Source: Candidatus Velthaea sp. (GTDB taxonomy: Bacteria; Vulcanimicrobiota; Vulcanimicrobiia; Vulcanimicrobiales; Vulcanimicrobiaceae). Taken from it: a stretch of DNA of 64,000 bases. The first letter of the stretch is position 1; each line of letters starts with the position of its first letter. Positions 7,270 through 46,494 of the stretch are shown piece by piece. The stretch spans positions 39,328 through 103,327 of the forward strand of contig JBEKHC010000039.1 in the NCBI GenBank assembly GCA_050012475.1. The letters are read 5' to 3'. The notes under the pieces are model-generated. The model saw only the letters and a list, made by a program, of their open reading frames with translations, ran no database searches and was not told where the DNA came from. The position numbers and the translations under genes were made by a program.

Positions 7270-7446
7270 AAAAATGACGAAGCCCCTCACCGAACCGGCG
7301 AAGGGCTTCTTCGCAGAATAGCGCGGTGCGCTAACCCGCGGTGAAACTCACCGGCCCATTCGAAGGGGCCGGGTACACCACTGCGCTAACGCACGAGAGA
7401 GAAGCATTGCTTAATGATAGTAGCTGTTTGACGGTTCATGTGTCAA
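7270..7446 (-). promoter_or_regulatory. Putative attenuator L1: promoter, leader MLLSRALAQWCTRPLRMGR (7407-7348), terminator 7309-7279
   Basis: TTGACA-18-TACTAT, ATG 9 nt later; single TGT followed by hairpin CCGGCCCC..GGGCCGG whose 3' side (CCGGTGAG) can alternatively pair with the terminator arm TTCGCCGG. Confidence 0.62.
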
Positions 7447-7721
7447 GCAGATGAATGCAGTTCTCAAACACATGTGCTAAAGCAATTGCTATGCTTTATT
7501 GGAATTAAATCGTTTGCTCCGCATGTTGCCGGTTTGCTCGCTGCGCGCTTTCGACAGGGATGCCGCGCTGCAACGAGCATTCGACGCTAACTTAGGGTCA
7601 ACTATAATTTAACGTAGGGCCGACAAAATGCAAAATGCCGGCACCCATTATGCAATCGCTGCTTAACTACTTCACGACGGAAGCGAACTTCCGGACGCGA
7701 CGTACGAGCAGCTCCGCCTCT

Positions 7722-8381
7722 TCACTTCGCGCGATGATCGATTTGCTGCGTGACCCGATCGCCGCCGGCCTGAACCGCGCACACGAACGCGATCAGCACC
7801 AGGACGACGGCGATCATCACGGTCGTCTCAAAGCGCTGATACCCGTAGCGGATCGCGAGGTCGCCCAAACCGCCCGCGCCCACCGCACCCGCAACGGCCG
7901 ACTCGCCGATGAGCGAGATCAACGTCACCGTAAAGCCCGCCGACAGCCCGGGGAGCGCCTCGGGAACGAGCACTTCCCAGACGATCGTGGCGCGGTTCGC
8001 TCCCATCGCGCGCGCCGCTTCGATCAGGCCTCCGTCGACTTCGCGCAGCGAGACTTCGGCGATGCGGGCAAAGTATGGGATCGCCGCGATCGACAGCGGG
8101 ACGATCGCCGCCAACGTGCCGATCGACGTGCCCGCGATCAGCCGCGTAAACGGAATGAGCGCAACCATCAAGATGATGAACGGGACCGAACGAAACGAAT
8201 TGACGACCGCGCCAAGGATCCGGTTGACCGTCGGTTGTTCGACGATTCCGCCGCGATCGGTGCATACCAGAACGAGGCCGATCGGCAACCCGATAAGGAG
8301 TGCGATAAGGCCCGAAGCGCCGACCATCAGCAGCGTTTCGAGCAGGGCCTCAACCGTGAGGTTAACGATCTGAGTTGAGAT
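7722..8381 (-). CDS. metI: Methionine ABC transporter permease
   Basis: RSVPFIILMV, GAVGAGGLGDLAIRYGYQRF. The expected start at 8381 reads ATC behind GGAGGT; the next in-frame ATG is 8327. Confidence 0.88.
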   Translation of the reverse strand: MSTQIVNLTVEALLETLLMVGASGLIALLIGLPIGLVLVCTDRGGIVEQPTVNRILGAVVNSFRSVPFIILMVALIPFTRLIAGTSIGTLAAIVPLSIAAIPYFARIAEVSLREVDGGLIEAARAMGANRATIVWEVLVPEALPGLSAGFTVTLISLIGESAVAGAVGAGGLGDLAIRYGYQRFETTVMIAVVLVLIAFVCAVQAGGDRVTQQIDHRAK

Positions 8382-9456
8382 AGCCGAGCACCTCCACGGA
8401 AGAAACGCGGTCTTCGACGAACGCGCGGAAGCGCGAAGCCACGTCCGGCCCAGTATTTTTCACGCTCACGAACAGGGTTCCGATCGGCTCGCCCTGCACG
8501 TGCTCGACTCCGCCCTCGAGCAGCGTCGCCGCGCCAAAGACTTGCGAAAGGTTGGCAAGGAGCGGCGAGCGCGCCTGATCCCCTTGCACGTCGAGGCGCA
8601 CGACGAGAGCATCGCCCGTCACTTCGTGCAGCCGTGCAGCGATAAACTCCGGCAGCTCCGGCCGCAACGCGCCGAGCAGCCTGCGCGTGCCCGGCGCCTC
8701 GGGCGCGGCGAACACCGCAGACACGGGGCCCGTCTCGATGACCCGGCTATTTTCGAGCACGACGACCCGGTCGGCGATCGCACGGATCACGCTCATCTCA
8801 TGGGTAATCAGCACGATCGTGAGCCGCAAGCGGCGGTTGATCTCGCGCAGCAGTTCGAGAATCGAAAGCGTCGTCTCCGGATCGAGCGCCGACGTGCCTT
8901 CGTCGGAGAGCAACAGCAGCGGTTCGGCGGCGAGCGCACGCGCGATGCCCACGCGCTGTTTCTGGCCGCCGGAAAGCTGCGCCGGATAGGCGTCGCCGCG
9001 CCCGGAGAGATCGGCGAGGTCGAGCAGTTCGTTCACGCGCCGGCGACGCTGGGCAGCAGCGATTCCGGCGATCTTCAGCGGCAAGGCAATGTTCTGCGCC
9101 ACCGTCTTCGATGAGAGCAGATTGAAGTGCTGAAAAATCATTCCGATCCGGCGTCGCATCGGCTGCAGTTCGCTCTCCGAGAGGCGGGCGATATCCACGC
9201 CCTCGATCTCGACCATCCCGGTGTCGGGACGCTCGAGACCGTTGAGGCAGCGAATGAGCGTCGTCTTTCCCGCGCCGCTGCGGCCGATGATCCCGAGGAT
9301 CTCGCCCGGCTGCACCGCGAGCGAGATCGCATCGAGCGCAACGTATTCGCCGAATCGCTTACCGACGTTGCTCAGCCGCAGCAGCGCACGCGAATCGGTT
9401 TGGTCGTCGACGGGCTGATCCCGGATAGCGAACGGCGACGCAGAAACCTGGCTCAC
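8362..9456 (-). CDS. metN: Methionine ABC transporter ATP-binding protein with C-terminal NIL-like domain
   Basis: GRSGAGKT, IGMIFQHFNLL, LSGGQKQRVGIARAL, C-terminal VEVLGY. Confidence 0.92.
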   Translation of the reverse strand: MSQVSASPFAIRDQPVDDQTDSRALLRLSNVGKRFGEYVALDAISLAVQPGEILGIIGRSGAGKTTLIRCLNGLERPDTGMVEIEGVDIARLSESELQPMRRRIGMIFQHFNLLSSKTVAQNIALPLKIAGIAAAQRRRRVNELLDLADLSGRGDAYPAQLSGGQKQRVGIARALAAEPLLLLSDEGTSALDPETTLSILELLREINRRLRLTIVLITHEMSVIRAIADRVVVLENSRVIETGPVSAVFAAPEAPGTRRLLGALRPELPEFIAARLHEVTGDALVVRLDVQGDQARSPLLANLSQVFGAATLLEGGVEHVQGEPIGTLFVSVKNTGPDVASRFRAFVEDRVSSVEVLGYLNSDR

Positions 9457-10265
9457 CAGCCCGGAAGCGCCGTTCCGTGGTAGACCTTGACCAAGGCGCT
9501 CTTGATATCGTTGTTCTCGTACGACGCCACGAGCGTGCGCACCCAGGTTTCGTTCTCCTCACCCGTTTTCACCGCGATGAAGTTGCGGTACGGGTTGTCC
9601 TTGGCGGGCTCGGTCGCGATGCGGTCTTTCTGCGTGAGCTTCGACTTGGCGGCCCAGTCGGTGTTGACGACGGCGGCATCCACGTCGTCGATCGAGCGGC
9701 CCACGATGCCGGCGTCGAGTTCGCGCACGACGATGTTTTTCGGATTGCTGACGATATCGGTCTGCGTCGCCGTTATGCCGGAGCCTTCGCGCAGCTTGAT
9801 CAGGCCGACGTCCTCGAGCAGCACCAGCGCGCGGCCTTCATTGCTTGGATCGTTCGGCACGCCGATCTTTGCGCCGGCCGGCAGATCGGCGACGCTGCGA
9901 TGCTTGTGCGAATACAGTCCGATCGGCCAAATCGCCGTGTAACCGGCGATCGCGATATGATAGCCGCGCGTCTTGATCTGATTGTCGAGATACGGCTTGT
10001 GTTGGAATGCATTCGCATCCAGTTCGCCGTGTTCGAGTGCTTCATTGGGTTGCGTGTAGTCGTTGAACGTCACGACCTTCACGTTGAGACCGCGCTTCTT
10101 GGCCTCTTGCACGACGAGGGCCCAGAGGTCCTCATCCTCACCGCTTTCGATGCCGACGCGGACGGGATTCGGGGCGCTGTCCGCGTGCGCGAGGAGCGGC
10201 AGCGAACCGCCGAACAGAACGCTGGCTGCGAGGACGGCGACAGCCCAGCGGCGATAAATCTTCAC
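9453..10265 (-). CDS. metQ: MetQ/NlpA-family substrate-binding protein
   Basis: FNDYTQPN, DANAFQHKPYL, PNDPSNEGRAL; start set to GTG 10265 behind AAGGAG (the track's 10418 start runs through the attenuator). Confidence 0.9.
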   Translation of the reverse strand: MKIYRRWAVAVLAASVLFGGSLPLLAHADSAPNPVRVGIESGEDEDLWALVVQEAKKRGLNVKVVTFNDYTQPNEALEHGELDANAFQHKPYLDNQIKTRGYHIAIAGYTAIWPIGLYSHKHRSVADLPAGAKIGVPNDPSNEGRALVLLEDVGLIKLREGSGITATQTDIVSNPKNIVVRELDAGIVGRSIDDVDAAVVNTDWAAKSKLTQKDRIATEPAKDNPYRNFIAVKTGEENETWVRTLVASYENNDIKSALVKVYHGTALPGW

Positions 10266-10311
10266 GACGAGAAAACTCCTTGCATGAGTGCGGGGTGAAA
10301 TGACATGAAAT

Positions 10312-10782: not shown

Positions 10783-10941
10783 TAAGTTGTCGCTCTGCAA
10801 TGTACCCATCCACTTTCTGTTGTGCTTGTCGGTGTTCGACTGCTCCATTGGGCACGCCGGTGAGGTATATGCGCGCTTAAGCGATCGTCGCAATTCAGCC
10901 CGTACAAGCCCTCTACCGACCGTAGCGGGCTTTTTCTTTTT
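10783..10941 (+). promoter_or_regulatory. Putative Cys attenuator L3: leader MYPSTFCCACRCSTAPLGTPVRYMRA (10800-10880), terminator 10906-10941
   Basis: Four TGT codons; AAGCCCTCTAC..GTAGCGGGCTTTTTCTTTTT hairpin; possible -10 TAAGTT but no clear -35. Confidence 0.8.
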
Positions 10942-10985: not shown

Positions 10986-12278
10986 ATGAAATCTTATTTC
11001 GCGATCGCTCTTTGCGCGATCGTCGCCGGCCTGCCGTCTGCCGCGCTGGCAACTGACGGGTATTTCACTCTCGGGACGGGCCCGATCCAAGACGGGCTGG
11101 CTGGGGCGGGCGTCGCACTTCCGCAAGATAGCGCGGTTGCGGCCGTCAACCCCGCAGGCCTCGTTCGCGTCGGCAACACCTGGGAGTTCGGCGCCGCACT
11201 TTTCGCACCGTATCGGCAATATTCGGTGGACGGAACGCCGTCCGGTGCGACCGGGACGTTCGGGCTCGCGCGCGGCACCGTGAAAAGCTTGGACGATAAC
11301 TTTCTGCTTCCGCACGCATCGTTGAGCCGTCGAATCGACACGAAATCCGCCTGGGGCCTGGCCTTTTACGGCAACGGCGGCCTGAATACAACCTACCCGG
11401 GGGCAGGTCCCGGGACGGGTACCTTCTTCGCGGGCCCGACCGGCGTCAATCTCGTGCAGATCTTTCTCGCGCCCACCTATTCCCGCGCGATCGGCGACAA
11501 ACTCGCGGTCGGGGTCTCGCTGACCGGATCGTACCAGGCGTTTCGTGCGACGGGGTTGGCGAACTTCGGACCGTTCGTAAGCGACGGCCATCCTGGCAAT
11601 CTTGCCAATCGCGGCGCGGAAGGCTCATGGGGAGTCGGCGGCCGTGTTGGGGTGCTCTACGACGCGACGCCGGCCTTGACGCTCGGCGCGGCATATCAGA
11701 GCGTTACGTCACAGTCGTCGTTCGCGAAGTACGCGGACCTTTTCGCGCAGCAAGGTAGCTTCAACATTCCGGCGACGGCCACGGCCGGTCTCGCCTGGAA
11801 ATTCGCGCCGTCCGTGGTCGCGCTCGACGTCGAGCACATCTGGTACGGCCGCATCGCGGCGGTGGCGAATCCATTTTCCAATCTCAACATCGGCCTGGCC
11901 ACGGGCAACCCGTCGTACTTGCTCGGGGGCACGAACGGTCCGGGATTCGGCTGGCACGACACCACGTTCTACAAGGCCGGATACCAAATCGCGTTGTCGC
12001 AGCGCCTGACGTTGCGCGCCGGTGCCGCCTATGGACGGCAACCAATTCCGTCGTCCGACGTGTTGTTCAACATACTCGCACCGGCGGTTACCGAATGGCA
12101 CTTCGCGCTTGGAGGAACGGTGAAGACGACCAACCATGGCGAAGTGAGTGCGGCCGTCGTCGACGTGCCAACGGGCTCGGTGAGCGGACCAAACCCGCTC
12201 GAGGTGCCCGGACGCCAGCAGATCATGCTCGCGATGCATCAATTCGAGATCGAAGTCGGCTACGGCCGCAAATATTGA
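10986..12278 (+). CDS. FadL/TodX-family outer-membrane transport protein
   Basis: Signal peptide, GLAGAGVA..NPAGL N-terminal motif, GNGGLNT, beta-barrel pattern ending in Tyr. Confidence 0.82.
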   Translation: MKSYFAIALCAIVAGLPSAALATDGYFTLGTGPIQDGLAGAGVALPQDSAVAAVNPAGLVRVGNTWEFGAALFAPYRQYSVDGTPSGATGTFGLARGTVKSLDDNFLLPHASLSRRIDTKSAWGLAFYGNGGLNTTYPGAGPGTGTFFAGPTGVNLVQIFLAPTYSRAIGDKLAVGVSLTGSYQAFRATGLANFGPFVSDGHPGNLANRGAEGSWGVGGRVGVLYDATPALTLGAAYQSVTSQSSFAKYADLFAQQGSFNIPATATAGLAWKFAPSVVALDVEHIWYGRIAAVANPFSNLNIGLATGNPSYLLGGTNGPGFGWHDTTFYKAGYQIALSQRLTLRAGAAYGRQPIPSSDVLFNILAPAVTEWHFALGGTVKTTNHGEVSAAVVDVPTGSVSGPNPLEVPGRQQIMLAMHQFEIEVGYGRKY

Positions 12279-12285
12279 TGGAACG

Positions 12286-12747
12286 ATGATAATACACCCC
12301 GCACCTGCGCAATCCGATTGCATCACGCTCATCCCGCTATCGATCGTCCGGCTCAACCGGTTGACGATTTTGTGCAGCGTGATCCTCGCTTACGTGCTGC
12401 ACGCACCGCTCATTACGACCGCGTTGTTCGTCATCGTGACGCTCGCCGCCGGTTTCGGGCGCCGCGCCAGCCTCATCTATGCCGTCGGCCGGCTCGTTCT
12501 GCGACCGGCCAAGCCGGCAACCGACGGTGAAGACCCGCGCTTGATGCGCTTCAACAACACGCTCGCCGCGATCATCCTCGGTCTCGCGCAAGTCGCTTTC
12601 GTTCTGCACGCACCGCTCGTTGGTTGGATTTTCGCCGGCCTGGCCGCGCTCGCCGCGGCGGTCGCGCTTGCCGGCTTCTGCTTCGGCTGTTTCTTGTTCT
12701 ACCAGTTTAAACTCAACCGCGCCCGGCTCTTTGGTTCGACGAAGTGA
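12286..12747 (+). CDS. DUF4395-like membrane protein
   Basis: EDPRLMRFN and GFCFGCFLFY motifs, four hydrophobic segments. Confidence 0.75.
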   Translation: MIIHPAPAQSDCITLIPLSIVRLNRLTILCSVILAYVLHAPLITTALFVIVTLAAGFGRRASLIYAVGRLVLRPAKPATDGEDPRLMRFNNTLAAIILGLAQVAFVLHAPLVGWIFAGLAALAAAVALAGFCFGCFLFYQFKLNRARLFGSTK

Positions 12748-12875
12748 TCGAGTCTGGTCGCCGGTTCTCGGCAAAGTAATTCCCGAATCCTTAGCGCCCG
12801 CTCGCACGGCGCCGGCCGGATCATCGAGGCACTTGTGCGCAGGCGCCAATTCAGCGTTGCCCGTAGATTACGACC

Positions 12876-13892
12876 ATGAACGCGAATGCAAACACCGGCG
12901 CAACGCACGGCTTTGTCGGTACGATCGGGAACACGCCGTTGATCGAACTGCCGAAACTATCGGCCGCGCTCGGACGAACGATTCTCGGGAAGGCCGAATT
13001 CTTGAATCCCGGCGGGTCGGTAAAAGATCGCGCGGCGCGCGGCATTATCGAGGATTTCGAGCGCCGCGGTCTCCTCGTACCGGGCGGCACGGTCGTCGAA
13101 GGCACCGCCGGCAATACGGGCATTGGCCTGGCCCTGGTCGGCAACGCGCGCGGCTATCGCACGGTCATCGTCATGCCCGACGATCAGGCCGAAGAGAAGT
13201 ACGCACTGCTGCGAGCATATGGAGCGGATCTACACGTCGTCGAAGCCGCGCCGTTCACCAATGAAACGAAGAACTACTACCACGTTGCTCGGCGACTGGC
13301 CGAATCGATCCCGGGCGCCGTGTGGGCGAATCAATTCGAGAACACCGCGAACTACGACGCCCACGAACGGACGACCGGGCCGGAAATCTACGCGCAAGCT
13401 GGGGGCAACCTCACCGCCTTCGTCGCCGCCGCGGGAACCGGCGGGACCATCGCCGGCGTCGGCCGCGCCCTGCGCGAGCGAGATCCGCGCATCAAGATCG
13501 TACTCGCCGACCCATACGGCTCGGCGCTCTTCAACTACATCAAACACGGCAAGCTCGAAGCCGAAGGCGATTCGAATGCCGAAGGGATTGGAATCAAGCG
13601 GATCACCGCCAATTTCAGCGCCGCACCGATCGACGACGCTGTGCGCATCGACGATCGAACCATGGTCGAGATGGCGCACTGGCTCTTGCGGGAAGAAGGA
13701 CTGTTTCTCGGTGGGTCAGCGGGTCTCAATGTCGCCGCCGCCGCCCGTTTTGCCGCGACACTGCCGGCCGGCAGCCGCATCGCCACGATCCTGTGCGACG
13801 GAGGCGACCGTTACCGTTCGCGCCTGTACGATAGCGCATGGTTAGCTGAAAACGGCGTCACTCCAACCGCGCATGATCTCTCATTCCTCTGA
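12876..13892 (+). CDS. cysK: Cysteine synthase (O-acetylserine sulfhydrylase family)
   Basis: IGNTPL, KAEFLNPGGSVKDR (PLP Lys), GTAGNTG, GTGGT. Confidence 0.9.
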   Translation: MNANANTGATHGFVGTIGNTPLIELPKLSAALGRTILGKAEFLNPGGSVKDRAARGIIEDFERRGLLVPGGTVVEGTAGNTGIGLALVGNARGYRTVIVMPDDQAEEKYALLRAYGADLHVVEAAPFTNETKNYYHVARRLAESIPGAVWANQFENTANYDAHERTTGPEIYAQAGGNLTAFVAAAGTGGTIAGVGRALRERDPRIKIVLADPYGSALFNYIKHGKLEAEGDSNAEGIGIKRITANFSAAPIDDAVRIDDRTMVEMAHWLLREEGLFLGGSAGLNVAAAARFAATLPAGSRIATILCDGGDRYRSRLYDSAWLAENGVTPTAHDLSFL

Positions 13893-14020
13893 AAGTCCCG
13901 TTTCAAGCGTCCTGATGAAGATCATTGACCAGTCGTGTACGCTAGGCTCCCGTTGCGCGGCGCCTCAACGTTTGTGCATTTGCTGAAATCGCCGGGCACG
14001 AGCGTTCCAGGGCAGTGCGT

Positions 14021-14100
14021 TATCCGCTATATTGGACAAGCGGGAGGTTAAAGCGGAACCGAGCCCTTCTTCATCACCCAAAATTCCGTTGTAGTGGACA
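14021..14100. promoter_or_regulatory. Pair of imperfect palindromes TCC-N8-GGACA (14021-14038, 14083-14100), candidate operators
   Basis: TATCCGCTATATTGGACA and ATTCCGTTGTAGTGGACA, 62 bp apart, upstream of the Met-rich gene. Confidence 0.45.
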
Positions 14101-14234
14101 GGATGGTATCGATGTCCCATTTGTAGCATTGTCTGCCCCTTACAAGCGCGTTACGATTGAATCACCAGCACGGCCAAGGTTGATGGTCGAGCAAACGAGA
14201 CTATCGCTTTCCACAGCAAAAGGATGCTAAAACG

Positions 14235-14651
14235 ATGATGCCCGCGATGCAGATGCCGACGAACGGAATGATGAACCCCATGATGAGCATGCCGATGAAC
14301 CCAATGATGAGCATGCCGATGAACCCGATGATGAACCCCATGATGATGAACGGCATGATGGGCATGCCGATGAATCCGATGATGATGAACATGATGGGCA
14401 TGCCGATGAATCCCATGATGATGAACGGCATGATGGGCATGCCAATGCCAATGCCGATGATGATGTGTACAATGACCTGCGAGATGACGCCCGAAGGCAT
14501 GGTCTGTACCATGAAGCCGATGGACGGCATGTCGATGGATATGATGAAAGACTGTTGCGAACGCATGAACGCAGCAATGTCGATGGGAATGCCCGCGATG
14601 ATGATGTGTTCCAATATGCCCATGATGATGTGCATGCCCGCGAAGAAATAG
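14235..14651 (+). CDS. Extremely methionine-rich protein (62 Met + 7 Cys in 138 aa), putative sulfur-storage protein
   Basis: AAAAGGA RBS, repeats of MPMNPMM, Cys-containing C-terminal half, followed by a terminator. Confidence 0.8.
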   Translation: MMPAMQMPTNGMMNPMMSMPMNPMMSMPMNPMMNPMMMNGMMGMPMNPMMMNMMGMPMNPMMMNGMMGMPMPMPMMMCTMTCEMTPEGMVCTMKPMDGMSMDMMKDCCERMNAAMSMGMPAMMMCSNMPMMMCMPAKK

Positions 14652-15037: not shown

Positions 15038-15613
15038 CTATCCGATCGGGTCGACGTATGTCATTACCAAAAACATGAGCGCTTCGATTTGGCCGACATT
15101 TCGATAATGATGGGGAACGTCGGCATCGAAGAGAATCGCATCGCCGACTTCGAGAACGTGGAGTTGCGCCTCGACCGCAATTTCCACAGTTCCCTTGCTG
15201 ACCACTAAGTTCTCGACGGTTCCCGTCGCATGGGCTTCGGCTTTTTCCAGACCCTTCGAACTCAGGCGCAATTCGTAGAATTCGACTCTGCGTTGACTAT
15301 CGAAAGGGAACAACGCTCGCGACGTAAACTCCCGCGAACTCGATATCAGGACTTTCGAGTCGGCTGCTTTTAATACCGTGGGACCGTGGCTGTGCGGTCC
15401 GCCGGTGAGGGCAGATAGCGGAATCTCCAGCGCTCTTGCGACTTTCCAAAGCAGGTTGATCGTCGGAGCACTGCGTCCCAGTTCAATTTGGCCGAGCATC
15501 GCCCGGCTGACGCCGGAGATTTGCGCGAGACGCTCGAGCGAGTATCCGCGGCGGGATCGCAGCAGCCGCAAATTATGGCCGACGACTGCCGAAAGATCCT
15601 CTTCATCGGCCAA
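15038..15613 (-). CDS. XRE-family HTH + cupin transcriptional regulator (SutR-like architecture)
   Basis: SLERLAQISGVSRAMLGQIELGRSAPTINLLWKVA HTH; GDAILFDADVPHHYRN cupin. Confidence 0.9.
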   Translation of the reverse strand: MADEEDLSAVVGHNLRLLRSRRGYSLERLAQISGVSRAMLGQIELGRSAPTINLLWKVARALEIPLSALTGGPHSHGPTVLKAADSKVLISSSREFTSRALFPFDSQRRVEFYELRLSSKGLEKAEAHATGTVENLVVSKGTVEIAVEAQLHVLEVGDAILFDADVPHHYRNVGQIEALMFLVMTYVDPIG

Positions 15614-15625
15614 CGTGACGACTAA

Positions 15626-15793
15626 CTAAAAGGGCCGATTGAACGCGAACGCGTACGGCAGCGGCATCCAGACATAGCACCACATGACCGGCATGACGGC
15701 TGTGCGCGGCTGAGCTGCGGCAAGCTTCGCTTCTTCCCGGCGGCGCCGATATGCTTCGAGGTCGTGAACCACTGCCAGGGTGGCGGATGCCAT
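15626..15793 (-). CDS. Small hypothetical protein (55 aa)
   Basis: GGAGAG RBS before ATG 15793; lies between attenuator L4 and the regulator. Confidence 0.5.
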   Translation of the reverse strand: MASATLAVVHDLEAYRRRREEAKLAAAQPRTAVMPVMWCYVWMPLPYAFAFNRPF

Positions 15794-15839
15794 TTCATTC
15801 TCTCCGAGGGTGCAACGTGAAGTGCGGCGGCGGATCCGC

Positions 15840-16288: not shown

Positions 16289-16450
16289 TTGACGTCCGGA
16301 ACCGGCGATGGTACTATGCCCTGCATGAACGTTGCGAGCGCATCGTCGTGTTGCCGTTGTCTCGGTCCCTCACCCGGCGTAGCGGCATGACTTGATCGCA
16401 GCAGCGTGCGACTCTTGAGCGCCCTCGCCAAAACGGTTGAGGGCTTTTTT
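16289..16450 (+). promoter_or_regulatory. Putative Cys attenuator L5: leader MNVASASSCCRCLGPSPGVAA (16325-16390), terminator 16421-16450
   Basis: TTGACG-17-TACTAT, ATG 7 nt later; GCCCTC..GAGGGC-T6. Confidence 0.85.
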
Positions 16451-17936: not shown

Positions 17937-17945
17937 GGAGTCAAC

Positions 17946-34383: not shown

Positions 34384-34385
34384 AT

Positions 34386-36844: not shown

Positions 36845-37635
36845 CCGCGGAACCCAACGGCCGGCGCGGGGACGCGATCGGGGTGCACATCGCCGGTGTA
36901 TCGCACGAGTACGTCCTCGAAACGGGCACATTGCCAGTACTCGAGGACATCGATTTGACGGTGCCCCCCGGCTCGTTCACCGCGCTGCTGGGTCCAAGCG
37001 GAAGCGGAAAATCGACGATTCTGCGGATCGTCGCCGGCTTGGAATCGCCATCGCGCGGCCGCGTACTCGCCGGCGGCGTCACGATCGAAGGCCCGGATCC
37101 GTCGCGCGCAGTCGTCTTTCAAGAGGCCACGCTCTTTCCGTGGCGCAACGTTTGGCGTAACGTCGCGCTCGGGCCCGAAGCGCGCGGAAGCGTGCGCAGT
37201 GGCCGGGCCGCCCAGCACGATCCACGCATCGTGCGCGCGCTCGAACGGGTCGGACTTACTGCGTTTGCGACGGCACTGCCGCACCAGCTCTCCGGGGGCA
37301 TGGCGCAACGAGTGGCGCTCGCGCGAGCACTGATCGGCGATCCCGCGGTCCTTCTCTTGGACGAACCGCTGGGCAAGCTGGACGCGTTGACTCGCGGTGT
37401 CCTGCAGCGCGAACTCGCCGACCTCTGGCAGAGCAGCGGCTTCACCGCGTTGCTGGTGACGCACGACGTCGACGAAGCACTGATCCTCGCCGACCGCATT
37501 CTCGTTTTGAGTGAGCGCCCGGGGCGCATCGTCGCCGATCTCGCGGTCGATATCGAACGTCCCCGGCATCGCACCAATCCGAACTTCATTGCGCTGCGTT
37601 CGAAGGTGCTCGGTTGGCTTGGATTTCCGGATTGA
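36841..37635 (+). CDS. ABC transporter ATP-binding protein (SsuB/TauB-like)
   Basis: ATGA overlap with the permease; GPSGSGKS, LSGGMAQR, LLDEPLGKLD. Confidence 0.9.
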   Translation: MTAEPNGRRGDAIGVHIAGVSHEYVLETGTLPVLEDIDLTVPPGSFTALLGPSGSGKSTILRIVAGLESPSRGRVLAGGVTIEGPDPSRAVVFQEATLFPWRNVWRNVALGPEARGSVRSGRAAQHDPRIVRALERVGLTAFATALPHQLSGGMAQRVALARALIGDPAVLLLDEPLGKLDALTRGVLQRELADLWQSSGFTALLVTHDVDEALILADRILVLSERPGRIVADLAVDIERPRHRTNPNFIALRSKVLGWLGFPD

Positions 37636-37640
37636 TTGCG

Positions 37641-38291
37641 ATGCTTCGGATCCCGCGAAGCCTAGCGGATCGACTTCGTCGATCCGTCGCGTGTTCGCGC
37701 ATACCTTTGCCGTTCGTGTTGGCGCTTCTGATGACGTCGTCTTCGCCCGTGCTCGCCGCTTCGCAAGCACCGAAAGCCGGGCCGCACGTCGGCCTTGCGA
37801 ATTTCACCTTGACCGATCAGTTCGGCCGGCCGTTTGCGCTCGCCCGGCACATCGGGCATCCGCTCGTGCTGTTCTTCGGTTATTCGCACTGTGGCGACGT
37901 CTGCCCGCTCACGTTGGTGAAACTCGAGCATGCAAAAACTGCCCTCGGTGCTTCCGCGCGACCCCTCCAGGTCATTTTCGTAACGGTGGATCCGCAACGC
38001 GATACGCCCGCCGTTTTGCGGCGCTTCGTCGGCACCTTTGATCCGTCGTTCATCGCCTTGACCGGCTCGAAGGATCAGCTCGCCGGCGTCTATGCGGCGT
38101 ATCACGTGAGGTATCGCGCACTTGCCCCGGCCAAACCTTCGCTCGATTACGAAGTCGAGCACACCTCGCTTTTGTATTTCATCGGCCGCGATGGACGCCT
38201 GCGCGGGTTCGGTGACTGGACGGATTCGCAGACGATCGTAACGGAAAGCGTGCGCGACCTTCTGAACGCCCAGCCCCGGCCCAAGGTGTAA
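37641..38291 (+). CDS. SCO1/SenC-family protein
   Basis: FTLTDQFG, FFGYSHCGDVCP (CxxxC), TVDPQRDTP, YEVEHT. Confidence 0.88.
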   Translation: MLRIPRSLADRLRRSVACSRIPLPFVLALLMTSSSPVLAASQAPKAGPHVGLANFTLTDQFGRPFALARHIGHPLVLFFGYSHCGDVCPLTLVKLEHAKTALGASARPLQVIFVTVDPQRDTPAVLRRFVGTFDPSFIALTGSKDQLAGVYAAYHVRYRALAPAKPSLDYEVEHTSLLYFIGRDGRLRGFGDWTDSQTIVTESVRDLLNAQPRPKV

Positions 38292-40118: not shown

Positions 40119-40300
40119 TTGACAGGCCTTGCAATCGAATGCTAGTCTCGTACCAAGTATGGTTTGTCACGCGCACGCTCAAACGCCGTCCTGTTGTCGC
40201 TGTCCGCTTTTGCATCGGGAGAGATTGTTGCGCGTCTAACCGCCATTACTCGCAGGCGTAGCGTGAAGCCCTCTGCCGATTCGGCAGAGGGCTTTCTCGT
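40119..40300 (+). promoter_or_regulatory. Putative Cys attenuator L9: leader MVCHAHAQTPSCCRCPLLHRERLLRV (40159-40239), terminator 40265-40295
   Basis: TTGACA-18-TAGTCT, ATG 10 nt later; ATCGGGAGAG pairs 9/10 with CTCTGCCGAT; long GC stem with a short T tract. Confidence 0.82.
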
Positions 40301-40432
40301 GTGCTCCTCGAGTGTGAACCGCAGCCGTATGAGTCGTGAGCGATGAGGCGTTGCCGACCTGTTTCGTTCGACGTCAGCCACCAATGTCGCAGGAACGTGG
40401 CCGTAGCTGCGGCCGATCGAAAGGAACACCTC

Positions 40433-41752
40433 TTGGCGCTCAAGGCTTATTGGAACGAAGAGATCGAAACGCTTCCCCGCCGCGAGCTCGAAGCGCTGCA
40501 GCGGGATCGGCTCGCGTCGCACTTGCAATTGGCATATGCGAAGTCGCCCTACTACCGCGGTGCCTTCGATGCGGCCGGAGTGAAACCCGATGCTTTGGTA
40601 ACGCTCGCCGATCTGCGTAAGTTTCCGTTCACCAACAAACAAATAGAGCGCGAGCGCCAAGTCGCTGCGCCGCTGCTGGGCGACATGACCGCCGTCACGG
40701 AGGAGGAAGTCGTCTTCGTTTCGGCCTCGAGCGGATCCACCGGCGTCCCGACCGTCAGCCCATTCACGGCGGAAGATTTCGACACGTGGCAAGACATCGA
40801 GGCGCGCCTGTTCTGGATGACCGGCATCAGGCCGTCGGACCGCTACGTTCATGCCCTGAACTTCACGCTGTTCGTCGGCGGTCCGGACGTCATCGGTGCG
40901 CAGCGCTTGGGCGCCTTGTGCATCTGGGCGGGCACGATTCCATCGGACCGTTTGCTCTACATCATGAAAGCGTTTCGACCCACCGTCACTTGGACGACTC
41001 CATCGTATGCCTGGCATCTCGGAGAGACGGCCAAAGCGGAGGGAATCGATCCGGCGCGCGACCTCGCGATCCGCCGCATCATCGTGGCTGGCGAGCCAGG
41101 CGGCTCCATCCCCGGCACGCGCAAGGCCATCGAAGATCTGTGGGGCGCCGAGCTGTTCGATTTCTATGGGATTTCCGATATCTACGGTGCATGCGCGGGC
41201 CAATGCGCGCGGCACGAGGGACTGCACTTGGTTGAAGACCAGATCCTCTTAGAAGTGCTGGATCCAGCGACCGGAGAGCCGGTCGCGGACGGCAGCCAAG
41301 GGGAGATGGTCCTCACCACGCTGCAAAAGCGCGCCCGTCCGATGATTCGCTTCCGCACCGGCGACATCATCACCGCGGACCGTTCGCCCTGCGCCTGCGG
41401 CAGGACCCACGCGCGCATCTCCGTGATCGGCCGCCTCGACGATATGTTCATCGTTTCGGGAGTGAACGTCTTCCCCAGCGACGTGGAGCACGTGATCCGC
41501 CAGATTCCCGCGCTCACCGGTGAATACCGGATTCGGCTCTACGAAGAGGAGCATCTCACGCGCTTCGACTTGGAGATCGAAGTTGAAGACGGCGCCGGCC
41601 GTACCGAGCCGCTGGTCGAAGCCGTTTCAAACGCAATAAAGGCGCGCCTCGGATTACGGCCCAAACGAGTGACCGTTGTCGCGAATGGCTCGCTTCCGCG
41701 AAGTACGCACAAAGCAAAACGTGTCGTCGATGAACGCACTAGCGTTGGATAA
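40433..41752 (+). CDS. Phenylacetate-CoA ligase (PaaK)-family adenylate-forming enzyme
   Basis: SSGSTGVP, YGISD, RFRTGD, GRLDDMFIVSGVNVFP, KAKRVVD; start set at TTG 40433 behind AAGGA. Confidence 0.88.
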   Translation: MALKAYWNEEIETLPRRELEALQRDRLASHLQLAYAKSPYYRGAFDAAGVKPDALVTLADLRKFPFTNKQIERERQVAAPLLGDMTAVTEEEVVFVSASSGSTGVPTVSPFTAEDFDTWQDIEARLFWMTGIRPSDRYVHALNFTLFVGGPDVIGAQRLGALCIWAGTIPSDRLLYIMKAFRPTVTWTTPSYAWHLGETAKAEGIDPARDLAIRRIIVAGEPGGSIPGTRKAIEDLWGAELFDFYGISDIYGACAGQCARHEGLHLVEDQILLEVLDPATGEPVADGSQGEMVLTTLQKRARPMIRFRTGDIITADRSPCACGRTHARISVIGRLDDMFIVSGVNVFPSDVEHVIRQIPALTGEYRIRLYEEEHLTRFDLEIEVEDGAGRTEPLVEAVSNAIKARLGLRPKRVTVVANGSLPRSTHKAKRVVDERTSVG

Positions 41753-42023
41753 AAGCGCACAACCGGCGCGATCTCCAATGGACCGGCTCGGAGTACGCGC
41801 ATTTCGCGCTCGCTTGAGGAACAGCCGCCGACAACACGGGCGGTCCGGGCCGACGGCGCCGGTAGCGACATGTTCCGCAACACCGTCACGCATGTCACTT
41901 TCGTCGCAAGGCAAAGGTGTGTCAACGCGCCAAGAAAATCTGTCACAAGGCTGCTTTGTAAGCGCGCTTGCGCATTCGCGTGTTTTTTTTCCGAGATGTC
42001 CGGAGAAGGTTGAGATTTAAACG

Positions 42024-42953
42024 ATGGCCGACCCTGCGACCCCTGCAAGAGCCCTAGGCGACGACGCCGCCAGGCAACTCGCAAATGCCACCAAGACCGT
42101 TCCGCAATACGACATCATCACGCCGCGGTGGCTCGTGCGCTGTCTGCAGTGGGTGCCGGTCGAGGCGGGCGTTTTCCGGCTGAACCGGGTCAAGGACGCG
42201 AGCAGCGTCGCCGTCGACTGCGCCGATCGCGACGAGCGCGATCTGCCCGAAACGTACGTCAATTACGAAGAAAACCCGCGCGAGTATTTGCTGTGCGCGG
42301 TGACGACCGTCGTCGACGTTCACACACGCGTCTCCGACCTCTACAGCGTTCCCCACAACCAGATCGCGCAGCAGCTCCGCCTGGCCATCGAGACCATCAA
42401 GGAACGCCAAGAGAGCGAACTCATCAATAACGCCGAGTACGGGCTGTTGAGCAGCGCGACGCCGGCGCAAAAGCTCTCGACGCTTGGCGGCGCCCCCACC
42501 CCCGACGACCTCGACTCCCTTATCGCGAAAGTCTGGAAAGAGCCGGGCTTCTTCCTCGCTCATCCCTCCGCGATTGCGGCGTTCGGCCGCGAATGCACGC
42601 GCCGCGGCGTCCCGCCCGCCACCATCAACCTGTTCGGCTCGCCGTTCATCACCTGGCGCGGCATCCCGCTCATCCCGTCGGATAAAGTGAAGGTCGTCGA
42701 CGGCAAGACCAACATCTTGCTGATGCGTACCGGCGATGCGCGTCAGGGCGTCGTCGGCCTCTACCAGCCGAATCTCCCCGGCGAACAGAGCATGGGTCTT
42801 GCGGTGCGCTTCATGGGCATCGATCGCAAGGGCATCGCGTCGTATCTAATCTCGCTGTATTGCGCGCTCGCGGTACTAACGGACGACGCCCTCGGTGTTC
42901 TCGAGAACGTCGACGTGACGAAGTTCCCTGTGTACACGCATACCTATGCCTGA
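42024..42953 (+). CDS. Family 2A encapsulin shell protein (SrpI / major membrane protein I-like)
   Basis: ARQLANATKT, ITPRWL, YEENPREY, VHTRVSDLYS, ERQESELINN, PTPDDLD, ECTRRGVPP. Confidence 0.92.
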   Translation: MADPATPARALGDDAARQLANATKTVPQYDIITPRWLVRCLQWVPVEAGVFRLNRVKDASSVAVDCADRDERDLPETYVNYEENPREYLLCAVTTVVDVHTRVSDLYSVPHNQIAQQLRLAIETIKERQESELINNAEYGLLSSATPAQKLSTLGGAPTPDDLDSLIAKVWKEPGFFLAHPSAIAAFGRECTRRGVPPATINLFGSPFITWRGIPLIPSDKVKVVDGKTNILLMRTGDARQGVVGLYQPNLPGEQSMGLAVRFMGIDRKGIASYLISLYCALAVLTDDALGVLENVDVTKFPVYTHTYA

Positions 42954-45132
42954 TCTGCCGGATCCGCAATCGCTGGGCGCGCCCGGCGAAGACCTCATCG
43001 GTCGCATGGCCAACGCGATGTTTCGGGCCGCGACGCAAAGCGTCGCGTGGCCCGGCGGCCTTCCGAGCGGAACCGGCACGCCGCTGGGCGGCTTCGGCGC
43101 GGCCCTGCCGTCGACACCGCTGCCGGACGCGTTTGCGCCGACGATCACCGCTCCGAGCGCCGTCCCGGCCGGCACGATTCCGCCAGGCACGATTCCGCCG
43201 GATATTGCAACGGCTGCGCCGCCGCCGCTCGCGGCGCCGAGCGTTTCCGGCTTCGATGCCGCTCCAAGCGGAACGCCCGGCATAGCGCTGGGCGGTTTCG
43301 GCGCACCGCTGCCTTCGACGCCGCTTCCCGACGCTGCCGCGCCGGGCGCGGTTCCCGGCGATTCTGCCTTCAATCCGGTCGGCATCTCGAATCCCGTCGA
43401 ATCGAAGCCCGCGCCGGAGTCCGCAGCGCTACCGCCCCACGGTGGGGTCACGCCCGACGGTTTCTCCGGCGCTCCGGCAACCGCGCCGCGCGGCGGCTTC
43501 GGTGCTCCGCTGCCTGGCCACGCCGCGCCTGAACGCGGAACGCCCGAGTTCAACGTGCCCGCGTTATCCGACGCGAGCCTTTTCGTTCCCGACCAAGCCA
43601 TCCCAACCGACACGCTTTCGCGGCGTGGCCAGCCCGGCACGCTGCCCGAGTCGTCGTTGCCCACGTCGTCGTTGCCCGCGTCGTCGTTGCCCGGCGCGAA
43701 AATGCCCGGCCCGTCATCGCCTAGCGTGCCGCCGCTCGGACTCGCGATTCCCGGTGAAGACGATCTTCGCGCATTGCTCGCGGCCGCGGCCATCCCGTTC
43801 GTGCAACCGACGTTGCAGGACGCCGCATCGCCGCACTACTATTTCCTGAAGCCGCCGGCGGAGCTCGCCGCCGCACCGGCCGCGGACGGCTTCGACGTGG
43901 ATCTCGTCCGGCACGATTTCCCGATCTTGTCCGAACGCGTCCATGGCCGGCCGCTGATCTGGTTCGACAATGCGGCCACCACGCAAAAGCCGCAAGCGGT
44001 AATCGACCGCCTGAGCTATTTCTACGAACACGAGAACTCCAACATCCATCGTGCCGCGCACGACTTGGCCGCACGTGCGACCGACGCGTACGAAAAGGCT
44101 CGCGAGACCGTGCGCCGCTTCATCAATGCTGGTTCCGCCGACGAGATCGTTTTCGTGCGCGGCACCACCGAAGCGATCAATCTGATCGCCAACACGTGGG
44201 GCCGGCGTTTCATCGGCAAGGGCGACGAGATCGTCGTCACCTGGCTCGAGCATCACGCCAACATCGTGCCGTGGCTGCTGGTGTGCGAGCAGACCGGGGC
44301 GATCCTCAAAGTCGCTCCGGTCGACGACCGCGGTCAAGTCAAACTCGATGAGTACGGGAAGCTCCTGGGGCCGCGCACCAAATTAGTGTCGTTTACCTCG
44401 GTCTCGAACGCGCTGGGGACGATCACGCCGGCCAAAGTCATGACCGATATGGCCCACGCCGCCGGCGCACGCGTGCTGCTCGACGGGGCCCAATCGGTCT
44501 CGCATATGCGCTCGGACGTTGCGGCACTCGACGTCGACTGGTTCGTGTTCTCGGGACACAAGGTCTTCGGGCCGACCGGGATCGGCGCGGTGTACGGCAA
44601 GCCCGACGTGCTCGCGGAATCACCGCCGTGGCAAGGCGGCGGCAACATGATCGAGGATGTGACGTTCGAACGGGCCCTCTACAAGGCACCGCCGAGCCGG
44701 TTCGAGGCCGGGACGGGGAACATCGCCGATGCCGTCGGTCTGGGCGCTGCGCTGGAATACGTCGAACGCGTCGGCATCGAGGCGATCGGCCGCCACGAAC
44801 ACGATCTGCTCGCGTTCGCAACGCGGTTGCTGCTCGACATACCGGGGCTGCGGATCATCGGCACGGCGGCCGAAAAGGCCGGCGTGATCTCCTTCGTCCT
44901 CGACGGGATCGACCCGGTCGAAGTGGGAACCGCGCTCAACGAAGACGGCATCGCCGTCCGGGCTGGTCACCACTGCGCGCAACCCATTCTGCGCCGCTTC
45001 GGCTTGGAAAGCACCGTGCGCGCGTCACTCGCGCTCTATAATACGCTGGCCGAAGTCGACGCATTGGCCGCGTCGGTGCGCCGGATTCAATCGAAGCGAG
45101 CACCGCATCGCGGGGCGCGCTCGGCGGTTTGA
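42946..45132 (+). CDS. Encapsulin-cargo cysteine desulfurase (SufS-like) with ~310-aa Pro/Gly-rich N-terminal extension
   Basis: DNAATTQKP, FSGHK (PLP Lys), RAGHHCAQP; overlaps the shell gene's end. Confidence 0.92.
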   Translation: MPDLPDPQSLGAPGEDLIGRMANAMFRAATQSVAWPGGLPSGTGTPLGGFGAALPSTPLPDAFAPTITAPSAVPAGTIPPGTIPPDIATAAPPPLAAPSVSGFDAAPSGTPGIALGGFGAPLPSTPLPDAAAPGAVPGDSAFNPVGISNPVESKPAPESAALPPHGGVTPDGFSGAPATAPRGGFGAPLPGHAAPERGTPEFNVPALSDASLFVPDQAIPTDTLSRRGQPGTLPESSLPTSSLPASSLPGAKMPGPSSPSVPPLGLAIPGEDDLRALLAAAAIPFVQPTLQDAASPHYYFLKPPAELAAAPAADGFDVDLVRHDFPILSERVHGRPLIWFDNAATTQKPQAVIDRLSYFYEHENSNIHRAAHDLAARATDAYEKARETVRRFINAGSADEIVFVRGTTEAINLIANTWGRRFIGKGDEIVVTWLEHHANIVPWLLVCEQTGAILKVAPVDDRGQVKLDEYGKLLGPRTKLVSFTSVSNALGTITPAKVMTDMAHAAGARVLLDGAQSVSHMRSDVAALDVDWFVFSGHKVFGPTGIGAVYGKPDVLAESPPWQGGGNMIEDVTFERALYKAPPSRFEAGTGNIADAVGLGAALEYVERVGIEAIGRHEHDLLAFATRLLLDIPGLRIIGTAAEKAGVISFVLDGIDPVEVGTALNEDGIAVRAGHHCAQPILRRFGLESTVRASLALYNTLAEVDALAASVRRIQSKRAPHRGARSAV

Positions 45133-45271: not shown

Positions 45272-45359
45272 CGGCTTCGCCTAATCCGAGCGGGTATCGA
45301 GCGAAGTCACGGCGCACCCGTTTTGCGCCCTTTGGCCGACGGGCCGTCAGCGAAAGGCG

Positions 45360-46256
45360 TCAGATCGCGAATTCGGAGTATTCGTAGGACAGACTCTTGA
45401 GAATTTTATCGAGCGCCTGAACTTGAGAGCTCTTTTCCGATGCCTTGATGATTTTTGCCGGAATTCCGGCGACAGTCGCTTTCGGGGGAACGGATTGAAG
45501 CACGAGCGCTCCCGCGGCGATGCGGGCGTACGATCCGATTTCGATGTTGCCCAGGATCTTGGCCCCCGCGCCGATCATGGCGCCGCGCCGAATTTTTGGA
45601 TGGCGATCGCGTGCTTCTTTTCCGGTCCCGCCTAAGGTGACGTCTTGGAGGAGCGAAACGTCGTCTTCGATCACAGCGGTTTCACCGACGACCAGTCCCG
45701 TCGCATGATCGAGAAAGATACCCTTGCCGAACCTCACCGCCGGATGGATGTCCGTTTGGAACACATCCGACGAGCGGCTTTGCAAATAGAGCGCGAAGTC
45801 GCGCTCGCCGCGGTGCCATAACCAATGGGCCAGACGATGGGTCTGAACAGCGTGAAATCCTTTGAAATAGAGGAACGGCTCGATCAGCCGCTCGCACGCG
45901 GGATCGCGTTCGAGCACGGCCGCGATATCGGCGCGAATGGCCTTCGCGATCGAATGATCGGCGTCGAAGGCGCGGTGGAACGTCTGCACCAAGGCGTCAA
46001 TTGCCAGCGTGCTATTCGCCAGCCGGGCGGCAACCCGATGAATGATCGCCGCCTCGAATGAGGGCTGGGCAAGAATCGAATCAACGAACAACGGGGCGAG
46101 CATCGGGGCCTGCCGGTTGGCGTCCTCGGCTTCTTTCCGAAGGCGCGTCCAAAGGTCATCGCGCGGGGCTTGCCGTTCCGCAGGCTCCGCCTGATGTTCC
46201 CCAGTTTCCCCGCGCTGGGTTGAGATGACTTGGCTATTGACGGAGTGGAGCGCCAC
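45360..46256 (-). CDS. cysE: Serine O-acetyltransferase
   Basis: ERDPAC, YFKGFHA, DIHPA, LDHATG, VTLGGTGKE..RHPKI; start set at GTG 46256 behind GGGGA. Confidence 0.93.
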   Translation of the reverse strand: MALHSVNSQVISTQRGETGEHQAEPAERQAPRDDLWTRLRKEAEDANRQAPMLAPLFVDSILAQPSFEAAIIHRVAARLANSTLAIDALVQTFHRAFDADHSIAKAIRADIAAVLERDPACERLIEPFLYFKGFHAVQTHRLAHWLWHRGERDFALYLQSRSSDVFQTDIHPAVRFGKGIFLDHATGLVVGETAVIEDDVSLLQDVTLGGTGKEARDRHPKIRRGAMIGAGAKILGNIEIGSYARIAAGALVLQSVPPKATVAGIPAKIIKASEKSSQVQALDKILKSLSYEYSEFAI

Positions 46257-46310
46257 GCGTGTTTCCCCAATGAATTCGAGACAGCAAATTCGAGACAGCA
46301 AATAAGAGAG

Positions 46311-46494
46311 CAAAGAAATGAAGAACCCCTCGGCACAGCGAGGGGCTCTTTAGGTAACGCGGACCCGGCGGGTCAAACGCTAGTCGATGAGCAATCGCCG
46401 TTCAAGGGCTGCACGAACCTCAGACAACAACAACCAACGAGAGACCGGCGTAAGCGCATGCGCGAACGATATCATTCTCGCCCGGTCCTGTCAA
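46311..46494 (-). promoter_or_regulatory. Putative Cys attenuator L10: leader MRLRRSLVGCCCLRFVQPLNGDCSSTSV (46459-46373), terminator 46350-46311
   Basis: TTGACA-17-TATCGT, ATG 6 nt later; TGT-TGT-TGT; ACGGCGA pairs with terminator arm TCGCTGT. Confidence 0.86.

Follow-up and report, generated by a model that had tools for sequence, protein, structure and literature searches.

Cys-rich leader elements at the head of sulfur operons in Candidatus Velthaea sp.: a probable family of leaderless transcription attenuators

What is the function of ten short intergenic elements of common layout that head the sulfur operons in one stretch of the genome of Candidatus Velthaea sp. (Vulcanimicrobiaceae)? 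The stretch, referred to here as the window, comprises 64,000 nucleotides (nt) of contig JBEKHC010000039.1 (assembly GCA_050012475.1, positions 39,328 to 103,327, forward strand). It is the terminal part of a 103-kb contig (C39), has a G+C content of 63% and belongs to a genome of 5.36 Mb in 204 contigs that is 93.8% complete and 5.3% contaminated. Each element, named L1 to L10 in order of position, combines a short open reading frame (sORF) containing Cys codons with a terminator, and a first-pass annotation of the window had read them as attenuators in which a stalled ribosome relieves termination. Taking together the evidence presented below, we consider it likely that all of them are transcription attenuators with a leaderless leader peptide and that each senses how much Cys-tRNA(Cys) is available.

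Anatomy and number of the elements

All ten elements that the first-pass annotation had listed were found within a few bases of the positions it gave. Six of them lie on the minus strand (L1, L2, L4, L6, L7 and L10) and four on the plus strand (L3, L5, L8 and L9), and they are invariably oriented toward the adjacent operon. The promoter described for nine of the ten was confirmed, with a TTGAC(A/G/T) box, a spacer of 17 or 18 nt, a TAnnnT box and an ATG or GTG that follows after 6-10 nt. The -10 box is mostly preceded by TG, and the short distance to the start codon in these nine elements leaves no space for a Shine-Dalgarno site. The sORFs of L1 to L10 encode 19, 25, 26, 20, 21, 23, 19, 19, 26 and 28 amino acids (aa), 226 in total, and contain 1, 2, 4, 2, 3, 4, 3, 3, 4 and 4 Cys codons, respectively, which reproduces the earlier tally of 30 Cys in 226 residues. 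The Cys cluster is located 5-15 codons ahead of the stop codon, at a distance from the next gene. As had also been claimed, a single G+C-rich hairpin with a T-rich tail (-12.6 to -24.7 kcal/mol) is present in all ten elements. It begins 91-110 nt past the start codon and 18-39 nt past the stop codon, while the gap between terminator and first gene is variable and ranges from about 20 to more than 200 nt.

The covariance model and genome scan that the annotation had called for extend the family well beyond the window. The model, R1, was built on 21 aligned copies of this genome (alignment A1), and its sole structure is the terminator helix. It recovers exactly the ten known elements in the window and 25 full-length copies in the genome at E<=0.0015 (the 21 training copies and four new ones); the count of ten was therefore right for the window and is an undercount for the genome. 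Two or more Cys codons occur in 21 of the 25 copies, a single one in two (L1 and a copy at C39:32271), and the remaining two are rich in Leu/Ile/Val. The 103-kb contig alone harbours 17 of the 23 Cys-bearing copies. The 21 copies with at least two Cys stand before sulfur genes at multiple loci, for which a joint response is predicted.

Could strong promoters and terminators simply happen to flank short frames? We searched the genome for the promoter pattern with a start codon at a distance of 4-12 nt and an ORF of 8-45 aa behind it, and obtained 37 cases, 23 of them with at least two Cys, compared with 7-14 cases, of which 1-3 with at least two Cys, in three Markov-random genomes of the same size and the same dinucleotide make-up. 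Four further frames with at least two Cys in the genome scan lack a well-placed terminator, and this number matches the 1-3 expected by chance. Overall, however, the genome counts far exceed those of the random genomes, and chance would explain neither that the elements are kept in relatives nor that the terminator covaries (see below). We give this explanation next to no credence.

The use of Cys codons was analysed in 18 clean elements. Cys accounts for 64 of 434 codons (14.7%), compared with about 1.0% in long ORFs; since the set had been chosen for at least two Cys, this enrichment is partly built in. The same does not apply to the frame bias and to the choice of codon. TGY occurs 64 times in frame versus 27 and 12 times in the other two frames, and TGT makes up 44 of the 64 leader Cys codons versus 16% of the Cys codons in long ORFs.

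Relatives and pathway-matched leader classes

Using R1, we found matches in 20 of 24 genomes of the same family (18 of 22 without the unpublished genomes G011 and G022, which are counted only in this tally, G011 also in the tRNA tally below), in four of five genomes of a second family of the order and in one of 11 of a third family of the class. A phylum-wide sample, for which strict filters were applied and 18 candidates were scored per genome, gave matches in 48 of 71 genomes of the same family. Further matches came from families f2 (1/1), f3 (1/9), f5 (1/1) and f20 (5/16), while f6 (0/19) and 15 other families (0/33) had none. The relatives contain 1-14 matches per genome, the genome studied here 24-25. 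We took 79 R1 matches from relatives, and a leaderless sORF was readable in 72 of these.

The leaders of the relatives with at least two Cys codons, 35 in number, were grouped by the first ORF that follows them (Pfam cut-off 1e-8). A sulfur, Cys or Met enzyme or transporter follows in 15 cases (NIR_SIR 5, Cys_Met_Meta_PP 4, PAPS_reduct 2, NMT1 2, PALP 1, ABC+TOBE 1). Homoserine dehydrogenase follows in five, and most of these leaders are of a mixed Met/Cys type, such as 'MFCMCC'. Three precede other families (a fatty-acid-desaturase-like gene and two SSF transporters), and two are actually leaders of the Ile/Leu/Val or the Tyr type with a stray Cys pair. For the remaining ten there was no Pfam match at this cut-off; some of these ORFs are short and probably spurious, and one leader is followed by a tRNA. 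The conservation of Cys codons, of which the annotation had made a test of its proposal, was observed in the leaders of cysH, sulfite reductase and metY, which retain their Cys codons across 5-6 genomes each. The other residues of orthologous leader peptides drift.

This pattern of conservation bears on the idea that the peptide itself is the product, for example a metal- or redox-active micropeptide, with a terminator that ends a small gene and with operons that have promoters of their own. Cys-rich micropeptides exist. Moreover, the terminated RNA or the peptide could have a second function in trans, as reported for the trp leader of Sinorhizobium (PMC6614838, PMC7298713). However, the peptides are unconserved apart from their Cys codons, the elements always face the adjacent operon, and peptides rich in Leu, Val, Trp or Tyr are encoded in the same layout ahead of matching pathways. 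A role of the peptide as product is thus highly unlikely in our estimate.

The match between residue and pathway was followed in a positive control consisting of 33 non-Cys leaders of the relatives. Among 14 leaders rich in Trp/Phe/Tyr, seven precede DAHP synthase, five prephenate dehydratase and DAHP synthase and one chorismate mutase, with no match for the last; examples are 'GFWWWL' and 'AYWYWFF' (Trp-rich or mixed) and 'YYAYYF' (Tyr/Phe-rich). Another 14 are rich in Ile/Leu/Val and are followed by acetolactate-synthase-type thiamine pyrophosphate (TPP) enzymes in 11 cases and by a class IV aminotransferase in two, again with no match for one. All three Leu-rich leaders stand before ketol-acid reductoisomerase, and the remaining two of the 33 precede an HMGL-like synthase and a homoserine dehydrogenase. 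Leaders of this kind are also present in the genome of the window. A Leu-rich copy (C18:54196-54376, minus strand) precedes ilvC, a leuA-like gene and leuC, a copy rich in Leu/Val/Ile (C45:10987-11167, plus strand) precedes the acetolactate synthase gene ilvB, and the promoter scan gave a further Leu-rich leader before leuA (C21:44883, plus strand).

A residue that matches the pathway is the textbook logic of leader-peptide attenuation. The residue-pathway match is the main argument for a ribosome-mediated attenuation, and a decoded frame is its simplest explanation.

It also speaks to the proposal that the elements are RNA switches that respond to a metabolite, a protein or a tRNA, in which the reading frame would be incidental. 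In other bacteria sulfur genes are controlled by SAM riboswitches and T-boxes, which lends this proposal some appeal. Furthermore, SAM-I and SAM-IV riboswitches were not found in the 93.8%-complete genome (the search did not extend to other SAM classes or to T-boxes), and this leaves scope for an RNA device of another kind. On the other side, at Rfam gathering scores only tRNA was matched in the window, and the region ahead of the terminator has no excess structure. The threefold comparison of TGY counts, with 64 in frame, and the fixed distance of the start codon from the -10 box both point to a translated frame. Moreover, the enriched residue shifts with the pathway, which only a decoded frame explains. 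We regard an RNA switch as very improbable.

Terminator, candidate antiterminator and predicted mechanism

The hairpin behind the sORF is maintained as a structure. In 122 aligned matches, 93.9% of the cells of the terminator helix are paired, and 12 of 12 pairs have changed on both sides. As a control, the pairing partner was slid by 1-3 columns, and pairing fell to 48-66%.

In the mechanism that we propose, a strong promoter with an extended -10 box would start the RNA at, or a few bases from, the ATG or GTG. Given such a start, a 70S ribosome would load without a Shine-Dalgarno site and encounter, at about codons 5-17, a cluster of 2-6 Cys codons in which the rare TGT predominates. When Cys-tRNA is ample, the ribosome would reach the stop codon and cover a G-rich segment in the last sORF codons; with this segment covered, the hairpin 18-39 nt onward would form and transcription would stop after about 130 nt. 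When Cys-tRNA is scarce, stalling on the Cys cluster would leave the G-rich segment free to pair with the C-rich 5' arm of the terminator. This pairing would take place as soon as the 5' arm is made, and RNA polymerase would continue into the operon. About 21-23 operons with such a leader would then respond together, as a ribosome-run sulfur regulon ('ribulon'). Leaderless initiation, stalling, antiterminator pairing and the direction of regulation are the steps that we infer from sequence.

The first-pass annotation had noticed, in several leaders, a segment complementary to the terminator's 5' arm. We found that the best partner of the 5' arm lies recurrently in the last sORF codons. A window of -27 to +15 nt relative to the stop codon forms duplexes with the 5' arm that average -14.6 kcal/mol, compared with -12.2 kcal/mol for its own dinucleotide shuffles (mean z -0.94, n=93 leaders of all classes; 42 below -1 and three above +1), and it outpairs the 5' part of the sORF in 81 of the 93 leaders. 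The metY group reaches pairings of 12-13 base pairs with -15 to -22 kcal/mol. An antiterminator pairing at this position therefore appears likely from these calculations, although its signal is modest.

An alternative is that the sORF senses cysteine and that the output is mainly translational, or arises through polarity, as in mycobacteria, with a hairpin that acts as a leaky stop or as a stabiliser. The position of the ribosome would then expose or block the region where translation of the first gene begins. The one Cys system dissected by experiment, Ms5788A, works by hiding a Shine-Dalgarno site and has no terminator (10.1101/834739), and the modest antiterminator signal in our data fits this view as well. 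However, a canonical hairpin with a T-run, strongly covarying, is present in every element at 18-39 nt past the stop codon. In addition, the gap from terminator to gene varies between about 20 and more than 200 nt, and the complementarity at the stop codon is to the 5' arm of the terminator. A mainly translational output is improbable in our judgement, somewhat less so than the RNA switch or the micropeptide.

Several observations weigh against attenuation by a stalled ribosome in the form given above. Computed over the whole leader, duplex formation with the 5' arm does not exceed that of shuffles (mean z -0.47, n=18). The region ahead of the terminator has no excess structure over shuffles (mean z -0.13, n=18). 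In a column pairing matrix of leader against 5' arm (alignment A2), base composition dominates and no diagonal is readable. The 93 leaders comprise kin and paralogues, and their z values describe a consistent tendency rather than a probability, with the strength of the signal overstated. The alignment behind the covariation figures was fitted to the model, which favours pairing. Folding with the ribosome masked at the first Cys codon, a variant of the masked folding that the annotation had proposed, gave a divided result: the antiterminator is the minimum-energy fold in five of 18 leaders, while the terminator remains so in the other 13 despite the stalled ribosome. Because the terminator persists in these 13, the model requires kinetic, co-transcriptional folding. 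Two members of the window set deviate as well: L3 has no recognisable -35 box, and the single Cys codon of L1 makes the residue that it senses doubtful. As for the earlier proposal that the regulon would do without a CysB/CymR-type factor, L4 itself would control a helix-turn-helix (HTH)/cupin regulator, and for this reason a second, protein-based tier of control is possible.

A trp-like 1:2 hairpin was also considered and dropped, as the pre-terminator folding energy is no lower than that of shuffles.

Taken together, the earlier proposal of a terminator relieved by stalling and of a single regulon is well supported in its core, by the conserved Cys codons, the sulfur genes, the parallel leader classes and the covarying terminator. 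Its antiterminator has modest backing, and the residue sensed by L1 is doubtful.

Led operons, tRNA-Cys genes and known systems

L1 (7279-7446, minus strand) is an atypical member; it is part of the training set and has an R1 score of 71.2 bits. Its -35 box is at 7446-7441, its -10 box at 7422-7417, its sORF with one Cys at 7407-7348 (MLLSRALAQWCTRPLRMGR) and its terminator at 7309-7279. Behind it lie, at 1261-7099 on the minus strand, a ferredoxin-like ORF of 81 aa (2x[4Fe-4S]-type, 7099-6854), a corrinoid protein (6806-6144), three MtaA/CmuA-family methyltransferases and a corrinoid reductive activase (2964-1261). The single Cys codon of L1 has a 'QWC' context in common with that of the new copy at C39:32271-32476. 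A further new copy, at C39:19744, has two Cys and precedes a cystathionine beta-synthase-like gene.

Two leaders head methionine transporters of the ATP-binding cassette (ABC) type. L2 (10318-10477, minus strand; -35 box 10477-10472, -10 box 10453-10448, sORF 10441-10364 MSSSASAMCRCSSAPIIGRKRFARV, terminator 10341-10318) precedes one of the metQ-metN-metI type at 7722-10298 on the minus strand, and L5 (16289-16444, plus strand; -35 box 16289-16294, -10 box 16312-16317, sORF 16325-16390 MNVASASSCCRCLGPSPGVAA, terminator 16421-16444) a second one of the metN-metI-metQ type at 16480-18779 on the plus strand. L3 (10800-10932, plus strand), which scores 62.1 bits with R1, has its sORF at 10800-10880 (MYPSTFCCACRCSTAPLGTPVRYMRA) and its terminator at 10906-10932. 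It is followed on the plus strand at 10986-13892 by a FadL/TodX-type outer-membrane channel, a DUF4395 protein and cysteine synthase A (CysK). The DUF4395 protein has 153 aa (12286-12747, plus strand). L4 (15845-16006, minus strand; -35 box 16006-16001, -10 box 15983-15978, sORF 15970-15908 MESMLCRRCRPGKLIASRLD, terminator 15874-15845) precedes the transcription regulator with HTH_3 and Cupin_2 domains (15038-15613, minus strand).

Between the CysK operon and this regulator, within the sulfur island, we noted a Met-rich ORF of 138 aa (14235-14651, plus strand) with repeats like 'MPMNPMMMNGMMG' and eight Cys in its C-terminal half. It has no Pfam match, and its product could serve to store sulfur or methionine, or could be a Met-rich protein that binds metal. 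Parts of the window are contained in 20 of 21 listed sequencing runs, mostly DNA metagenomes from soil or peat. Two metatranscriptomes contribute a few short contigs (12082-12451, 12632-12894, 14019-14441 and 15551-15804), which as assembled contigs are uninformative on starts, ends and read-through; they span 14161-14441, within and just ahead of the Met-rich ORF.

L6 (30344-30502, minus strand) has its -35 box at 30502-30497, its -10 box at 30479-30474, its sORF at 30465-30394 (MDMLQSRCCRCSARLTGECSHSI) and its terminator at 30375-30344, and is followed by a sulfonate transporter of the ssuC-ssuB-ssuA type and a taurine dioxygenase (TauD) at 26689-30275 on the minus strand. An alternative frame of L6, which begins with a GTG 3 nt past the -10 box, also contains a Cys pair (MQWICC...); this GTG is probably too near the -10 box to be included in the transcript. 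L7 (31712-31872, minus strand; -35 box 31872-31867, -10 box 31849-31844, sORF 31836-31777 MSVASKSAVCPCCSLFDMA, terminator 31741-31712) precedes a 2OG-Fe(II) oxygenase (DIOX_N + 2OG-FeII_Oxy) at 30556-31578 on the minus strand. L8 (33147-33307, plus strand; -35 box 33147-33152, -10 box 33171-33176, sORF 33186-33245 MNCMSCPCPRYFWPIFGRA, terminator 33285-33307) precedes, at 33313-38291 on the plus strand, an SsuA-like binding protein, an O-acetylhomoserine sulfhydrylase, an ABC permease, an ABC ATPase and an SCO1/SenC protein.

L9 (40119-40292, plus strand; -35 box 40119-40124, -10 box 40143-40148, sORF 40159-40239 MVCHAHAQTPSCCRCPLLHRERLLRV, terminator 40268-40292) heads an operon at 40343-45132 on the plus strand with a PaaK-like adenylating ligase, a family 2A encapsulin shell protein and a cysteine desulfurase cargo, and would tie the encapsulin compartment of this organism to cysteine limitation. 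L10 (46321-46494, minus strand; -35 box 46494-46489, -10 box 46471-46466, sORF 46459-46373 MRLRRSLVGCCCLRFVQPLNGDCSSTSV, terminator 46350-46321) precedes a serine O-acetyltransferase gene, cysE (45360-46313, minus strand). Among species-representative genomes the closest matches of this CysE are alphaproteobacterial, with at most 71% identity, and the gene was possibly acquired and now bears the local type of leader. A second cysE, on contig C3, has no leader and adjoins cysS, which has neither an R1 match nor a visible leader upstream.

Outside the window, Cys-type leaders precede sulfite reductase, cysH-cysC-cysA-sbp-cysTW and SulP, as well as a second Cys_Met_Meta_PP enzyme, an amino-acid ABC system, a Liv-type ABC system, further NMT1-type ABC systems and a luciferase-like monooxygenase. 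In total, the Cys-led genes of this genome comprise two Cys_Met_Meta_PP enzymes, two Met transporters and at least four sulfonate-type ABC systems.

The genes behind the leaders also include tRNA genes. The only tRNA in the window is a tRNA-Cys(GCA) at 26501-26573 on the minus strand, which closes the L6 operon, 115 nt past the stop codon of tauD; in the interval between tauD and this tRNA neither a promoter-like nor a terminator-like site was found. The genome has two further tRNA-Cys genes, on contigs C49 and C61. The copy on C49 has an encoded CCA end and adjoins another tRNA, and from these two features we take it to be the housekeeping copy. The tRNA-Cys(GCA) on C61 (5000-5070) begins 18 nt past the terminator of a Cys leader (MSHRAFACRCCHCLALTRSRSS) and lies ahead of sulP, so that two of the three tRNA-Cys(GCA) genes are located within Cys-led operons. 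We examined 20 tRNA-Cys loci of the family, a set that leaves out one unpublished genome, and found a Cys-type leader directly upstream and on the same strand in eight genomes of at least six genera. A match to this tRNA is present in 17 of 100 family genomes, in a tally that includes the unpublished G011.

A tRNA under an attenuator that reads the charging state of this same tRNA would form a feedback loop. If this is true, the sensor regulates the molecule that it reads, and the loop could determine the gain of the sulfur response as a whole or, alternatively, give translation the first call on scarce cysteine. The link raises the question of whether the cell adjusts the amount of a tRNA to how far that same tRNA is charged. 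A more general idea, that the ribosome and not DNA-binding proteins runs the amino-acid control of this family by means of a reusable leaderless cassette, with a Cys version that has spread to about 20 operons including those with extra tRNA-Cys genes, is put forward here as tentative, and we incline to doubt it in this full breadth.

If the reading as Cys attenuators is true, nearly the whole sulfur economy of the organism is tied to one signal, the speed of the ribosome on Cys codons. It would cover sulfate and sulfonate uptake, reduction, Cys and Met synthesis, methionine import, the encapsulin compartment, a regulator and tRNA-Cys genes. It would also provide a rule for annotation, in that a Cys leader marks a gene of sulfur starvation. 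Such a rule could be applied to genes to which no role has been assigned, namely DUF4395, the FadL-like channel, the PaaK-like ligase before the encapsulin, the corrinoid methyltransferases and the fatty-acid-desaturase-like gene.

How do these elements compare with systems already described? The first-pass annotation had asked for a check of novelty. A full-text literature search, judged mostly by titles and abstracts, found no terminator-based, multi-operon Cys attenuator regulon, no work on leader peptides in Eremiobacterota and no report of a tRNA gene behind a Cys leader. The extra tRNA-Cys genes inside Cys-attenuated operons, in eight genomes, are new here.

Single Cys leaders have been described before cysS. 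In Deinococcus deserti, de Groot et al. (2014, PMC4007540) predicted 14 leader peptides whose translation begins directly at the transcription start, with a 5'-AUG/GUG. One of these, with 10 aa and two Cys, precedes cysS, whereas here the sulfur assimilation genes are led and cysS is not. In uORFC-8-2, an upstream ORF (uORF) motif of Rhodobacterales, tandem Cys codons are conserved and a terminator stem with a U-run comes after them; the motif was proposed as a sensor of Cys-tRNA (Brewer et al. 2021, PMC8632094). It shares this order of parts with our elements. It differs in that it occurs only before cysS and once per genome, is alphaproteobacterial and has its Cys codons within a conserved stem; the elements described here do not stand upstream of cysS. 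Seliverstov et al. (2005, PMC1262725) reported candidate Cys leader peptides in Actinobacteria, encoded ahead of cys operons by short ORFs that contain Cys runs, 'without obvious terminators', whereas every copy here has a terminator hairpin.

The closest relative in concept is the 'Cys ribulon' of mycobacteria, in which 6-7 leaderless polycysteine sORFs act as cysteine sensors (Canestrari et al. 2020; bioRxiv 10.1101/834739). Its authors stated that uORF-mediated attenuation for cysteine had not been described earlier, and one of the proteins concerned, Ms5788, is a small hydrophobic protein of 159 aa (10.1101/834739). In both cases several cysteine and sulfur operons begin with sORFs in which Cys codons are clustered, leaderless in mycobacteria and probably so here, and the ribosome would serve as the cysteine sensor of a regulon without a dedicated DNA-binding factor, as we propose for our organism. 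However, about 21-23 loci are involved here, compared with 6-7 in mycobacteria. There, the Cys tract is C-terminal and base-pairs with the Shine-Dalgarno region of the gene that follows, a translational mode without a terminator (10.1101/834739); here, the Cys tract lies far from the next gene, and an intrinsic, covarying terminator follows every sORF. If true, our reading carries the mycobacterial concept over to transcription termination and into a lineage that has hardly been cultured, and the regulon would be the largest amino-acid 'ribulon' among those that we found described.

The classical trp, his, leu and ilv attenuators (10.1101/834739, PMC4007540) share several features with the elements of this study, namely a short ORF enriched for the amino acid under control, an intrinsic terminator, an alternative pairing with its 5' arm (here a predicted one) and regulated genes that belong to the pathway of the sensed amino acid. 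They are led by a Shine-Dalgarno site, whereas the elements described here are probably leaderless, and our data do not support a 1:2 hairpin. Moreover, it is cysteine that would be sensed here, by a multi-copy family that spans uptake, scavenging, regulator and tRNA genes. What is remarkable here is how many copies there are, how broad the proposed regulon is and that other amino acids have parallel leader classes.

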